This document shows positions 11,887-17,617 of a DNA stretch of 30,552 nt, piece after piece; within the stretch, counting starts at the first letter, position 1, and each line of letters starts with the position of its first letter. The DNA comes from an uncultured Candidatus Saccharibacteria bacterium (GTDB lineage: Bacteria > Patescibacteriota > Minisyncoccia > Phycocordibacterales > UBA9973): assembly GCA_964349965.1 (NCBI GenBank), contig CAYGIL010000001.1, positions 1-30,552 of the forward strand, in the 5' to 3' direction. The position numbers were made by a program, and so were the translations under genes. Below the pieces are notes generated by a model. That model searched no databases. It was not told where the DNA came from and saw only the letters and a list, made by a program, of their open reading frames with translations.

Positions 11887-13263
11887 CTAACAGGACAAAG
11901 TCACACTCGTGCCCTGCTCTGGAGCTACTGCGTCTACGGCAAAGTTATCACGGAGTTTTTGTACGAGAAACATAGACGACTTAGGCTCACCCATCACAAC
12001 AAAAACTTTTTTAACCGTGTCTTGCGTATCACCAACAAAGTTTACAAGCCCATCAGAATCTTTATGCCCTGAATAACCTAAAATGGTGACTATGTGCGCC
12101 CGCACTGGGACGTTTTCACCAGTAATCCGAACAGTCTTGAGCCCCTCTTGTATCATACGTCCCGGAGTACCTACGACTTGATAACCAAGAAGAAGTAAAG
12201 TGTTGTTTGCATCTGGCAGATAATGCCTCTCATGGTGCACGATACGTCCCCCTGTCGACATACCGGAACCCGCGATCACGATCTTCGGACCTGGTATATT
12301 TGCGATCATCTTTGACTCTTCGGATTTGAGTGTATTGTGAAGTCCTGGAAAATCAAACAGGTATTTATCATGGTGCATCGCAATCTGAGCTGCTTCATTT
12401 AGATAGCCTTTGAATTGTTTGAATACTTCAGTGAGCCGAATCGCAAGCGGAGAATCGAGAAATATAGGCATCACGGGTATGCGCTTGTCCTCTACGAGAG
12501 AGTTAAGTTCAAAAAGAAGCTCCTGCGAACGCTCGAGAGAAAACGTCGGTATGATAAGAGTGCCCTTTCGCTTATAATTATCCTCGATCACTTCTTCCAA
12601 ATTCTTGCGCCTTTCATCACGGGATTCGTGATTACGATCGCCGTATACAGACTCCATGATCAAGTAGTCTGCATCAATTATTTTTTCTGTATCGGGCAAA
12701 AGTGGTGACGGACTATTGCCGAGGTCACCCGTAAATACGATCTTTTTACCGTTATATGTAAACTGAATCATAGCTGAACCCAAGATATGCCCGGCATTCA
12801 GCATCACAGCGTCGAGATCTGCTGCAAGCTCAATCCTCTCGTGATATTCAAATCCATGCCAAAGTGAAAAAGCAGTTTTTAGGTTTTCAGCGCTATACAT
12901 CACGTCTAGGTTGAGCTCTGTGTTTTTTGAAAGTATACCTGCTGCATCCTCGAGCATCGGAAGTGAGATCGCCTGAGTTGGTTTCGTAGAATAAATTTTT
13001 CCACGAAAACCTTCGCTGATCAGCTTTGGGATACGGCCAACGTGATCTATGTGTGCGTGAGTGATGAAAAGTATATCGATCTCCTTTGGGTTATACGGAA
13101 AAGGGTCCCAGTTGATATCATCTGCCATCTTGAGCCCCTGGATGAGTCCGCAATCTACAAGTATCTTCTTATCTGCCACCTCCAATAAAAAATTCGCCCC
13201 TGTGACGAAACCCGTACCTCCAACAAACGTTATTTTGGCAGTTTTGCCTGATGTATTTTCCAT
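11887..13263 (-). CDS. MBL-fold beta-CASP ribonuclease
   Basis: VDCG, THAHIDHVG, AGHILGSA, FTGDLG, MESVYG, AGSGMSTGGR, YSGHKD. Confidence 0.92.
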   Translation of the reverse strand: MENTSGKTAKITFVGGTGFVTGANFLLEVADKKILVDCGLIQGLKMADDINWDPFPYNPKEIDILFITHAHIDHVGRIPKLISEGFRGKIYSTKPTQAISLPMLEDAAGILSKNTELNLDVMYSAENLKTAFSLWHGFEYHERIELAADLDAVMLNAGHILGSAMIQFTYNGKKIVFTGDLGNSPSPLLPDTEKIIDADYLIMESVYGDRNHESRDERRKNLEEVIEDNYKRKGTLIIPTFSLERSQELLFELNSLVEDKRIPVMPIFLDSPLAIRLTEVFKQFKGYLNEAAQIAMHHDKYLFDFPGLHNTLKSEESKMIANIPGPKIVIAGSGMSTGGRIVHHERHYLPDANNTLLLLGYQVVGTPGRMIQEGLKTVRITGENVPVRAHIVTILGYSGHKDSDGLVNFVGDTQDTVKKVFVVMGEPKSSMFLVQKLRDNFAVDAVAPEQGTSVTLSC

Positions 13264-13275
13264 TGCTTTTATTAT

Positions 13276-13314
13276 ACCCGGTAGTGAGACTTTTTTAAAG
13301 CTCTACTACCGGGT
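13276..13314. repeat. Dispersed palindromic repeat, copy 2
   Basis: ACCCGGTAGTGAGACTTTT-TTAAAGCTCTACTACCGGGT. Confidence 0.8.
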
Positions 13315-13745
13315 TATACAATATTTGCCGTATTTGTCTTCTTGAATAAACGTGTTTTTAATAAGTATATTGCTAGTATGCCGCCGCTCGTATCACAAAT
13401 GATATCAGAGAGAGTATCGATCGAAGTAAAACGTGACAGGTCAGACGTGAGATAATAATCCACAAACGCTTCATATAATTCCCATCCGACACCCAAAAAT
13501 ATCACACCCGCAAGTACTTTACCAGCAAAAGCATGATAAGATCGGGGAAATTTATCATCACCCTGCAATAACATCCAAGCGACAAAGAAACCAAGCCACA
13601 CACCGCCCAAAAAGTGCATAATCATGTCAAAATACCAGATCGAGTAGTACAAATAGAACTTCATCGCTAGAAAGTTCAGAAAGAATATAGAAACCACAAG
13701 GAATGCAGCGGTTTTAAAAATTTTTGCTCGATCTATTTGATCCAT
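13314..13745 (-). CDS. Hypothetical membrane protein (VanZ/DUF2238-like)
   Basis: About 4 hydrophobic segments; D...HFLGG, WELYE and DTLSD motifs. Confidence 0.7.
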   Translation of the reverse strand: MDQIDRAKIFKTAAFLVVSIFFLNFLAMKFYLYYSIWYFDMIMHFLGGVWLGFFVAWMLLQGDDKFPRSYHAFAGKVLAGVIFLGVGWELYEAFVDYYLTSDLSRFTSIDTLSDIICDTSGGILAIYLLKTRLFKKTNTANIV

Positions 13746-13770
13746 ATATACAGCCTAACATACATAAAAG

Positions 13771-13924
13771 AAAAAATCCGCTAGAATGCGGAGTTCTTCT
13801 TAGGACTATTTCTCATATATTACCATAGCTAAAAGCTAAGTGGGTGCGAGACGTGTATAACCAAAGTTATATTCGATCGACGCTCCCGAAATTTGATGTC
13901 TAGGTAATAACGTGAAATAACCCT
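13771..13924 (-). ncRNA. Candidate 6S-like small RNA
   Basis: Own promoter (TTGCGA-16-TATAGT), rod-like fold with a central bubble, terminator at 13771-13792, no credible ORF. Confidence 0.55.
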
Positions 13925-14039
13925 ACCTTCACTATACTCCCTTCAAAATATTTCGCAAGAATTTTTCTAAAAAAACCACACACTTGCAATAAAAACAAGT
14001 TTAAGGTGTAAGTCAAAATCCACTAGACGAAATAATTTT

Positions 14040-14321
14040 TTAAGTTTTTGGTAATTCTTCTTTTATTTTTCTGTAAAGAATGTATTTTTCTTTATCGTGC
14101 ACGATTCTATCTAACGAATCCTCATTGTCCTCGGCAGCAAAATCCTTCCAATGTGCCATGGACCAATTATTTGGATTCTCTTTGTGCACGAGAACAACAA
14201 TTTCTTCGGGAGAGGGGGCACTGAACGCATCCGGTTCTATCATCTCGAATGTTCCCCTCTCTTCTCCCCGTCCAAATTCTCTATACTTTGAATGTGGGAC
14301 TGAATTTAATTCTTCTGACAT
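14040..14321 (-). CDS. Hypothetical protein
   Basis: 93-aa ATG-start ORF co-oriented directly after ndk; no recognised motif. Confidence 0.55.
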   Translation of the reverse strand: MSEELNSVPHSKYREFGRGEERGTFEMIEPDAFSAPSPEEIVVLVHKENPNNWSMAHWKDFAAEDNEDSLDRIVHDKEKYILYRKIKEELPKT

Positions 14322-14335
14322 ACCGAATACTTTTA

Positions 14336-14809
14336 TTATTCTTTGTGTTCCGCGTAAATAAAGTCACTATCAATCTTTTGATAGTCAAAAATTTCATTGT
14401 CTGCAAAGAAACGCTTCACTTCGATCTCACCAGCCTCGACGGATTCTGAAGCATGAACAATATTCGACTGAGTGGAAAGAGAAAAATCTCCACGTATAGT
14501 ACCTGCGTTTGCTTCCCATGCCTTGGTTGGACCGACAATCAATCGAATTGCGGACACACTGTTGATACCCTCAAGTGCCATAACAATAACAGGGCATGAT
14601 TTCATAAAATTCCTGATACCCGGGAAAAAAGGCTTGTCTTTGATATGCGCGTAATGCTCCTCCAATGTAGCATCCTCGATGCTCATCATCTTGATACCTA
14701 TAATCTTTAAACCCTTTTTCTCAAACCGGTTCATAATCTCCCCAACCAAATTCCGCTGTACAGCGTCCGGCTTAAATATAATTAACGTCTTCTCTTGTAA
14801 GTGTTTCAT
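14336..14809 (-). CDS. ndk: Nucleoside diphosphate kinase
   Basis: TLIIFKPDAVQRNLVGEI, GTIRGDF, SNIVHASES (catalytic His). Confidence 0.96.
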   Translation of the reverse strand: MKHLQEKTLIIFKPDAVQRNLVGEIMNRFEKKGLKIIGIKMMSIEDATLEEHYAHIKDKPFFPGIRNFMKSCPVIVMALEGINSVSAIRLIVGPTKAWEANAGTIRGDFSLSTQSNIVHASESVEAGEIEVKRFFADNEIFDYQKIDSDFIYAEHKE

Positions 14810-14848
14810 AATACGGCTATTCTAACAGAAAAAATGCATTTTGCAAAA

Positions 14849-17617
14849 TTACTGCATCGACTCGTAACGTGCCATGATTTCTGCTTCGACTTCGGCACGG
14901 CCACGGCCGTAGGTGAGGTAGGAAAGTTCTTTGAGATCGTCGACGATGTCGAGGTTCCCTGTCTCCGGTGCAAGAGTTTTAATATTAAACGGCTTGGTCG
15001 GTTGCCCCCGGACGAGCATGCTCACGTATGCGTTGTAGTTATCGAGCTTTGCGATGTCATGCGCCGAAAAAGTCGGCTTGAATTTCTGCTCGAGGAAATT
15101 AGCATCCTCGTTACCGACCCGGAATACCGCCATCGAACCCACGTTTCCAAATACTGCGTTTTTGATACTCTCATCGAGCTGACTGATGTACTGATGCGCG
15201 ATGTTGAGGGAAAGTCGGTATTTTCGTGCTTCAGAAAGTATGGACGCAATTGAGTCTGTGGTGACATTTTGGAACTCATCGATGTAGAGATAAAAATCAT
15301 TCATCGGTTTGCCGAACATGTCGACGCGGGAAAGCGCCGCCATCTGGATCTTGCCGACAAGTACGAGCCCGATCAGGTTTGCATTGATGTCCCCGAGGCG
15401 ACCCTTGGAGAGGTTCACAAGTAAAATCTTTTTCTCATCCATTATTTTCCTAAAGTTGAACACCGAATTTTGCTGTAGCACTACCGGACGCATAATGTCG
15501 TTACTGATAAAGTTATCGAACTTTGAGGAGATGTAAGGCACAAAGTTTGCGAGGGATTGATCCCCGGTCGTCTGCTCGGCTGCAATCCAAAATTGCTTGA
15601 TGATCGGATTCTTACAGCGTGCAAGCTTCATATCACGAAATGATTTATCCGCGAGCACGCGCGTGATCTCAAGAAGCGTCGAACCCGACTCCGGATCTTC
15701 CATTACGAGGAACGCACTATTTCGAAAATATTGCTCGAACATAGCGCCGCCGCCGATCTTCATATCAAAAAGTTTATTGAAAATCCCCATGAGCTCATTC
15801 ACCACAAAAGTTTTCTGCTCAGGGTATTTCGGATCAAACTCAAGCATGTTTAGTCCCATAGGCCGCGCAGTGTATGCCGGGTCAAAGTAGATCACGTCGT
15901 CAATGCGATCCTTTGGGATACGTGAAAGAATCGTTTGAATATCAGTACCGTGCGGATCTATATAGCAACAGCCGTCGCCGTTTCGGATGTCCTGTGTGAT
16001 CATATTGAGCAAAATATTTGTCTTACCTGTACCGGTCTGACCTATCACGTAAAAATGCCGCATTCGATCCTCTCGAGTCATACGTACCATAGTTTCTCGG
16101 TCCCGATAATTATTTACACCGAGAAGTATGCCCTCCTCACCCATTTCGATCGGTGCCGGAGCGATACCTGCTTTGGCTTCCTTGAGCTGTGGTTGGCTCA
16201 AAATACCAACTGGAAAATGAAACACCGAAGAAAGTTCTTTCAAGTTCATAGGTAGCACCTTATTTGGTGCAAACGCACGGAAGGAAAAATCATGAAAAAG
16301 CGCTTTCAATTCACCACCTTGAATACGCTCAAAGATAAAAGCATTGCTCGCTGTTTCGGAAAATTGATTAAAAGAAGACTCGATCTCATTCAAGATCGCC
16401 TGCGCCCGATCACGAGTACCCGCAGACGCAACTACACGGATATTTGCCTTCATTATCGTACTTTTAATCTTGTTTTTTATTTTCTCAGCTGCGCCTTCAT
16501 CGACTGCTCGACGACCCTTCATGTATTTTTCTTTATTCTCATCCCCGGTCTTTTTTTTCTCACCAAAGATAAGGTCCTTGCCTGCTTTCATGAAAGCACT
16601 GTTGAATTTATAGAAATTATCGGCAGCATGCTTTACCGACATGCCGTCTTTTACATCATCAAGTATTTTATGAAATTCATTGATAAATTTATCCCCCGCC
16701 GGAGCAACCACGAGCTGTATAGCAGCACCCTCACCTTTAGTTTTCAATTTAGAAAATACATTCAAGATAGTATTCATCGGGTCATGGTCGATCTCTTCAT
16801 ACGTCTTGATCGGTAGTACACTACGCTCCGTAAATGAAGCATAGGCACCTACGGATGCACCACCTTCATTGAATATATTGTAGTCGTTGGTAGCTTCACG
16901 AACCTTTGCATCATGATAAAAAGCTAGCACTTGCTTTTCGAAAAGCGATGTATGTTTATTCGGAATTCCTGCGTATATAACGACCTCATCACTGTCCATC
17001 CCAAGCGCCACCTCAAGAGTAAAATAATTCTCCTCTTTATTATATTTATCACTCTCGATCGAATGCATCCCGGCATAAAACTGCTCCATTGCACCGATGA
17101 ATTCCTTGAAACCTTTTGATTCATCCCCCTTATTTTCAGGCGGAGGCAAGGTGATTTCAAAAAGTGTCATATGAAGAGATTTGTGAAGTGGAGTACCCTC
17201 TTTGAGGTCTATAACGTTATTTGTATTTTTTAGATATTGAACGAGTATCCGATGAAAATCGTCATCAACGTGTTCACTTGCCATATGATCCACAACGGAA
17301 ATAGCGTTTCGAATACCTTTCGTGATCACAATTCCTAGCAACTCTTCCATCACTGCATCATGCGTCTCCGGTTTGAGCGCAAGTACGATCTGCTCCTTGT
17401 CTTTTTCCTTAAGCAAATGATCTTTGTGTAGTACTTTCTCCGCGGATTGATTTCGATACTTTGCTATCGTTTCCTTGATTGCATCATCACCCGCAGCTTC
17501 AAAGTGCCCTCGTTCGATAAGCTCTTGCTCGCGTAGCTTCACATGCTCACGCAAATATTCGAGCTCTTCTTCTGGAGTTCGAAATTTCGGCATCTCTTTT
17601 AGAAAGGATGGTTGCAT
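14849..17617 (-). CDS. VirB4/TraD/HerA-like P-loop ATPase (CPR-type)
   Basis: HFYVIGQTGTGKT, YIDPHG, LYIDEFQ, SEARKY, AHQYISQL, FGNVGS. Confidence 0.85.
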   Translation of the reverse strand: MQPSFLKEMPKFRTPEEELEYLREHVKLREQELIERGHFEAAGDDAIKETIAKYRNQSAEKVLHKDHLLKEKDKEQIVLALKPETHDAVMEELLGIVITKGIRNAISVVDHMASEHVDDDFHRILVQYLKNTNNVIDLKEGTPLHKSLHMTLFEITLPPPENKGDESKGFKEFIGAMEQFYAGMHSIESDKYNKEENYFTLEVALGMDSDEVVIYAGIPNKHTSLFEKQVLAFYHDAKVREATNDYNIFNEGGASVGAYASFTERSVLPIKTYEEIDHDPMNTILNVFSKLKTKGEGAAIQLVVAPAGDKFINEFHKILDDVKDGMSVKHAADNFYKFNSAFMKAGKDLIFGEKKKTGDENKEKYMKGRRAVDEGAAEKIKNKIKSTIMKANIRVVASAGTRDRAQAILNEIESSFNQFSETASNAFIFERIQGGELKALFHDFSFRAFAPNKVLPMNLKELSSVFHFPVGILSQPQLKEAKAGIAPAPIEMGEEGILLGVNNYRDRETMVRMTREDRMRHFYVIGQTGTGKTNILLNMITQDIRNGDGCCYIDPHGTDIQTILSRIPKDRIDDVIYFDPAYTARPMGLNMLEFDPKYPEQKTFVVNELMGIFNKLFDMKIGGGAMFEQYFRNSAFLVMEDPESGSTLLEITRVLADKSFRDMKLARCKNPIIKQFWIAAEQTTGDQSLANFVPYISSKFDNFISNDIMRPVVLQQNSVFNFRKIMDEKKILLVNLSKGRLGDINANLIGLVLVGKIQMAALSRVDMFGKPMNDFYLYIDEFQNVTTDSIASILSEARKYRLSLNIAHQYISQLDESIKNAVFGNVGSMAVFRVGNEDANFLEQKFKPTFSAHDIAKLDNYNAYVSMLVRGQPTKPFNIKTLAPETGNLDIVDDLKELSYLTYGRGRAEVEAEIMARYESMQ

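Follow-up and report, generated by a model that had tools for sequence, protein, structure and literature searches.

A compact, sequence-divergent RNA gene in a Patescibacteria bacterium that is very probably a member of the 6S family

6S RNA holds bacterial RNA polymerase by mimicking an open promoter. Bacillus subtilis 6S-1 (BsrA) and the 6S RNA of Aquifex aeolicus both have a central bubble whose 3' strand folds into a small hairpin while its 5' strand stays single-stranded and is the template for pRNA, whose synthesis and release have been demonstrated for both RNAs. The A. aeolicus 6S is also compact, at ~160 nt. The E. coli gene, ssrS, lies directly upstream of a co-oriented protein gene, ygfA, whose product is 5-formyl-THF cyclo-ligase. 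Closer to the lineage considered here, the Rfam 6S model RF00013 detects compact 6S RNAs of 142-197 nt in 22 of 151 other genomes of the phylum, seven of them above the gathering score, and our literature search found no paper combining '6S RNA' with 'candidate phyla radiation'. How does the present locus compare with these systems?

The element lies in the window, by which we mean the whole 30,552-nt stretch of DNA that was analysed, where a 294-nt gap on the minus strand houses it. All of its neighbours are on the same strand. Upstream are an orphan ORF of 93 aa (14040-14321), ndk (14336-14809) and, forming the upstream flank together with ndk, a 922-aa T4SS-coupling-protein-like (T4CP-like) ATPase located within the block 11887-17617. 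Downstream are the genes for a 143-aa membrane-like protein (13314-13745) and a 458-aa beta-CASP ribonuclease (11887-13263). The 93-aa ORF, which is downstream of ndk, is without a match in Pfam and NCBIfam and clusters with no ORF of other loci of the genus; it may not be a genuine gene.

An earlier sequence-only reading had placed in this gap a promoter with the boxes TTGCGA and TATAGT separated by 16 nt and a terminator with a TCCGC/GCGGA stem followed by six U residues, and scans for such signals recovered both on the minus strand at the same positions. The promoter is of the sigma-70 type, with its -35 box at 13953-13958, its -10 box at 13931-13936 and a predicted transcription start at ~13924-13926. 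The intrinsic terminator (13771-13800) consists of the A-tract AAGAAG (13800-13795), the stem (13792-13788 with 13781-13777) and a U-run (13776-13771), and its A-tract is able to pair with the UUUCUU tail. Among the genus sequences, the conserved block begins at the predicted start (~13926) and ends with the U-tail; the TTGC of the -35 box and a TAtACT -10 box are also conserved, but not the spacer between them, and the terminator stems vary in sequence among species while their pairing is kept. Nearly all members of the order have a TATAAT- or TATACT-like box 6-8 nt before a conserved GTAGGG start and an A-tract, hairpin and U-tract after the core. The stretch is a genuine small-RNA gene that has a promoter and a terminator of its own. 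Its predicted transcript, defined by the fold and by covariance-model matches, spans ~155 nt (13771-13926, minus strand). The runs listed as holding the sequence are DNA metagenomes only.

The predicted RNA folds into a rod capped by a tetraloop. For the RNA of 154 nt, RNAfold gives a minimum free energy (MFE) of -45.4 kcal/mol against -28.5 +/- 3.4 kcal/mol for 200 dinucleotide shuffles (z = -4.94), none of which is as stable; this is far better than the shuffled controls against which it had been proposed that the fold be set. The closing stem of ~22 bp has a 5' arm (P1 + P2) at 13903-13925 and a 3' arm at 13801-13824, both present in the MFE and consensus folds and supported by covariation. 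Its outer segment pairs AGGGTTATTTC (13924-13914) with GAAATAGTCCT (13812-13802), and its inner segment pairs TATTACC (13909-13903) with GGTAATA (13824-13818). The 5' strand of the central bubble (13888-13902) is unpaired in the MFE and consensus folds and starts with a conserved UAGA(A/U)YA, while the 3' strand (13825-13841) is folded into a small hairpin, P4. The apical (terminal) stem P3 of ~17 bp (13842-13887) has the invariant GGGAG / CACCC at its base, includes TATAAC / TTTG / GTTATA at 13871-13856, and carries a C(YUUG)G tetraloop (13862-13865) at its tip. All of these parts are read on the minus strand. Both segments of the closing stem and the apical hairpin had been recognized in the sequence-only reading at these coordinates, and RNAfold returns the same fold; the lengths then given for the bubble strands, about 11 and 18 nt, need correction to 15 nt on the 5' side and 17 nt on the 3' side.

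The sequence-only reading had also described a TAGC/GCTA hairpin on the 3' bubble strand as an alternative pairing. The hairpin exists, joining TAGCT (13838-13834) to AGCTA (13830-13826), but the word alternative undersells it, as it is a helix conserved across the order in which four of the five pairs show compensatory changes (examples are CGUGG/CCACG and CUAGUA/UACUAG). RNAalifold proposed instead an extension of the closing stem that pairs a 5' UAG with a 3' CUA; this extension is invariant in the genus and was rejected, as it is lost where the 5' UAG changes (to CAC in loci L058 and L060 and to UGU in L044). Because the UAG/CUA pairing is lost in some members of the order whereas P4 covaries, P4 is taken to be the ground state.

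How well is this structure conserved? By blastn, 35 of 36 genomes of the same genus contain a single homologue, with 71-81% identity. In the genus alignment of 35 sequences, 94.3% of cells are paired, compared to 32-44% when the partners are slid; 17 pairs show compensatory double changes, the apical stem covaries at 12 of its 17 pairs, and the observed covariation score is reached by none of 500 shuffles. At the level of the order, compensatory changes are seen in 35 of 42 pairs, including 19 of the 22 pairs of the closing stem, and 90% of cells are paired against 35-49% in the slid controls, although these pair counts are flattered by an alignment that was fitted to the model's structure. 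The parts that are invariant or nearly so in the order are GUAGGGUUAUU, UAUUAYC-UAG-A(A/U)YA, GGGAG, the C(YUUG)G loop, CACCCAC-CUAG...CUAG-GG and AAUAACCCUA. Covariation at the ndk-linked locus had been suggested as a check, and covarying homologues were found across a whole order.

Two covariance models were used, R1, which was made from the genus sequences alone, and R2, which was made at the level of the order; both match the core of the element at 13796-13926, with 136.6 and 115.1 bits, respectively. They also bear on the choice of strand. The plus strand folds too (z = -4.08) and was considered as the source of the RNA, but it is ruled out by the G-U pairs, by the orientation of promoter and terminator and by the model scores, R1 giving 30.9 bits on the plus strand. 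All three lines of evidence agree on the minus strand, the one originally assigned.

The curated 6S model does not recognize the element. RF00013 has no match in the window at its gathering threshold of 46.4 bits, none at E <= 10 over 13650-14150, and none in the element's own genome or in 41 genomes of the genus; within the order it yields a single sub-threshold partial match of 22 bits, at locus L059, which falls on the R1 site. By the standard of curated membership, which is the gathering threshold, the element is thus outside RF00013. An all-family Rfam cmscan at gathering thresholds finds a tmRNA and a tRNA elsewhere in the window and nothing at the element, and at E <= 10 over 13650-14150 it returns chance matches only (BSnc120, snoZ266, ctRNA and histone stem-loop). 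The expectation that annotation would miss this RNA is borne out for RF00013 and the all-family scan alike. Since RNase P RNA and tmRNA are detected normally in this lineage, the Rfam models do work here.

What kind of RNA is it, then? R1, which was built without any of the RF00013-positive sequences, matches 10 of 18 RF00013-positive loci at the same coordinates and on the same strand. R2 does so at 16 of the 18, with E-values down to 8e-10, although the E-values of both models are rough owing to a short calibration. In whole-genome searches of the phylum sample, R2 is positive in 43 of 151 genomes, and 12 of its matches coincide with RF00013 matches. The profile matches to accepted 6S members are therefore reciprocal and fall at the same sites. 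Moreover, the 6S signature GGGAG...CACCCACCU is present both in the element and in the RF00013 consensus. That consensus is printed by cmscan as GGGagcc ... gcaCCCACCUgg at the apical edge of the bubble, and the element and its relatives carry GGGAG ... CACCCAC(C/U)UAG at the equivalent place. Compared to the Rfam consensus GGGAGCC ... GCACCCACCUGG, the signature is found in the element as GGGAG at 13887-13883 and CACCCAC at 13846-13840, each invariant in the genus and the order. The rod of closing stem, central bubble and apical stem has covariation support, and at least 15 nt of the 5' bubble strand are unpaired in all folds. A same-class genome with an RF00013-positive RNA (L084) also has ndk upstream of it. 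No other 6S candidate was found with RF00013 in the element's own genome or in the genus genomes.

From the matches of R1 and R2 at RF00013 sites and from the shared GGGAG...CACCCACCU signature, we infer that the element is a divergent member of the 6S family rather than a new class. The sequence-only reading had left the choice between a compact 6S-like RNA and a novel sRNA; its first half stands and its second does not. The RNA is not of a new kind but a clade-level variant of the known family, and we assign a probability of about 0.88 to its being a compact, sequence-divergent 6S RNA (ssrS) gene, ~155 nt in length, of an ultra-small Patescibacteria (CPR) bacterium.

In searches with R1, one full-length copy is found in 79 of the 141 genomes of the order and in 71 of its 127 genera. 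The curated Rfam model misses the clade entirely, with none of 41 genus genomes recognized, where a model specific to the clade detects a single copy in over half of the genomes of the order; putting these sequences into the RF00013 seed would improve the annotation of Patescibacteria. One member of the order (G071, contig 5) has two tandem copies, L048:1199-1330 and L048:1501-1636, which are ~170 nt apart, score 67 and 33 bits and resemble the 6S-1/6S-2 paralogy of Bacillus.

The compact Patescibacteria members of RF00013 (such as L074, at 73 bits, L080, L082, L084 and L085) share with the element a rod of closing stem, bubble and apical stem, the sequence GGGAG...CACCCACCU(A/G)G at the apical side of the bubble, and occurrence as a single copy of 140-160 nt. 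Unlike these members, the RNAs of the order score below every RF00013 reporting level, the partial match at L059 aside, and have an AU-rich closing stem with a conserved sequence of its own, GUAGGGUUAUU...AAUAACCCUA. In addition, their closing stem is followed by a terminator hairpin distinct from it, while the 6S RNAs of other classes end with the closing stem and a U-run. At L082, L085, L074, L088 and L089, all of other classes, the U-run directly follows the closing stem and no separate terminator hairpin is present. The RF00013-positive RNAs of other classes often have a tRNA gene 10-70 nt downstream, and at L085 the RNase P RNA lies 1.2 kb downstream of 6S.

Compared to B. subtilis 6S-1 and A. 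aeolicus 6S, the element resembles their type in having a hairpin on the 3' bubble strand, which covaries here; apart from the family signature, it has no detectable sequence similarity to them. The synthesis and release of pRNA, demonstrated for those two RNAs, are presumed for the element. Like E. coli ssrS-ygfA, the element immediately precedes protein genes of the same orientation, and the arrangement is conserved. Unlike ssrS-ygfA, the downstream genes encode a small membrane protein and a beta-CASP RNase, and a strong terminator, accompanied in many relatives by a separate -10 box, sets the RNA apart from them.

Could an RNA of this shape do something else? One alternative is a trans-acting sRNA that is descended from 6S RNA, or merely resembles it, but does something other than sequester polymerase, for instance as a partner or substrate of the beta-CASP RNase. 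The element is shorter than a typical 6S RNA, its 6S function is deduced from homology, and the synteny block in which it sits is unusually stable, the order T4CP-like ATPase - ndk - RNA - 143-aa membrane protein - beta-CASP RNase being collinear in more than 25 families of the order (including loci L042-L070). Nevertheless, the promoter-mimic architecture is fully kept, with closing stem, open 5' strand, apical stem and family signature; the models match accepted 6S RNAs reciprocally, and the RF00013 searches turned up no second 6S candidate in the element's own genome or the genus genomes. We consider this alternative improbable.

The constant company of the downstream genes raises a second alternative, a cis-acting 5' leader or attenuator, whether riboswitch or protein-binding, that would govern read-through into the membrane-protein and beta-CASP genes. 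Throughout the order the RNA is upstream of, and co-oriented with, the genes for the 143-aa membrane protein and the RNase; the latter is present at 36 of 36 genus loci and at most order loci, and in the window the terminator ends only ~25 nt before the next start codon. However, at the order loci the upstream flank of T4CP-like gene and ndk is conserved just as well as the downstream genes, so synteny does not single the latter out. The terminator stems vary freely around an invariant core, and no co-varying anti-terminator of the riboswitch type is evident. Furthermore, in many relatives another -10 box follows the terminator and precedes the next gene, homologues in other classes precede tRNA genes or stand in other contexts, and the element shares homology with RF00013-positive 6S RNAs. 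A cis-acting leader is unlikely.

A divergent SRP (4.5S) RNA is conceivable as a housekeeping RNA that escaped detection, given that RF00169 finds nothing in 41 genus and 41 order genomes and RF01854 nothing in five genomes, but its probability is close to nil, since its protein partners Ffh and FtsY are missing (the Ffh M domain PF02978 and TIGR00959 are absent from 5 of 5 genomes, and the SRP54 GTPase domain PF00448 of Ffh/FtsY has no real match in 5 genus, 61 order and 101 phylum genomes while 14 of 14 control genomes are positive) and the element matches no SRP RNA model, has neither a GNAR tetraloop nor an AGCA motif, and carries its conserved parts at the base of the apical stem rather than at the tip. 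The SRP pathway is undetectable in complete genomes of the genus with PF02978, PF00448, TIGR00959, RF00169 and RF01854, in agreement with the report that many CPR bacteria lack SRP subunits (PMC8080830); with that report, the loss of SRP is already known.

As a 6S RNA, how might the element act? Its transcription would start at a sigma-70-type promoter and stop at an intrinsic terminator, both its own. By homology, the RNA is expected to sit, as a mimic of an open promoter, in the active-site cleft of the RNA polymerase holoenzyme that carries the housekeeping sigma. By analogy, the downstream-DNA channel of the sigma-70/sigma-A holoenzyme would take up the closing stem as a 'downstream duplex', and the apical stem would take the part of the upstream promoter duplex. 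The single-stranded 5' bubble strand is the presumed template for pRNA, to judge from the 6S RNAs of E. coli and B. subtilis, with synthesis probably starting at the conserved pyrimidine of UAGA(A/U)YA, near 13896-13897. Synthesis of pRNA would then run into the closing stem, unzip it and release the RNA. Polymerase binding and pRNA synthesis by the element are thus proposed on the model of better-studied 6S RNAs. One feature counts against the 6S reading: an apical stem of only ~17 bp would place the '-35' contact close to the loop.

Genomes of ~0.6 Mb that have lost SRP still keep 6S RNA, which suggests that global control of RNA polymerase by a promoter mimic survives even extreme reduction of the genome. 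The compact form, with a core of ~130 nt, also marks a minimum size for promoter-mimic RNAs.

Is the 6S RNA functionally coupled to its fixed neighbours? The beta-CASP RNase might mature it, or clear it once pRNA synthesis has released it, or read-through of the terminator might tie the levels of the RNase and the membrane protein to 6S transcription. We regard either form of coupling as doubtful; if true, it would constitute a 6S-RNase regulatory module of a kind not described elsewhere.

The neighbours themselves show some variation. The gene for the 143-aa protein, which has no match in Pfam and NCBIfam searches, is absent in 5 of 36 genus genomes, and there the RNA directly adjoins the RNase. 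The ndk genes of relatives are of two sorts, one encoding a protein of ~150 aa, 61-67% identical to that of the window, and the other a more distant protein of ~194 aa. The best NCBIfam match of the beta-CASP metallo-beta-lactamase protein is Cas14 MBL-CASP (type VII CRISPR), at 399 bits, and the next is aCPSF1, both scores being far below the curated cut-offs; judged from its sequence, the 458-aa protein is a CPSF-like RNase and not RNase J proper. Its gene is preceded on the minus strand by a near-consensus promoter, TTTAAA and TATAAT with a 17-nt spacer (13271-13299), whose end is 8 nt away from the beta-CASP start codon, a distance that suggests a leaderless mRNA or one with a very short leader.
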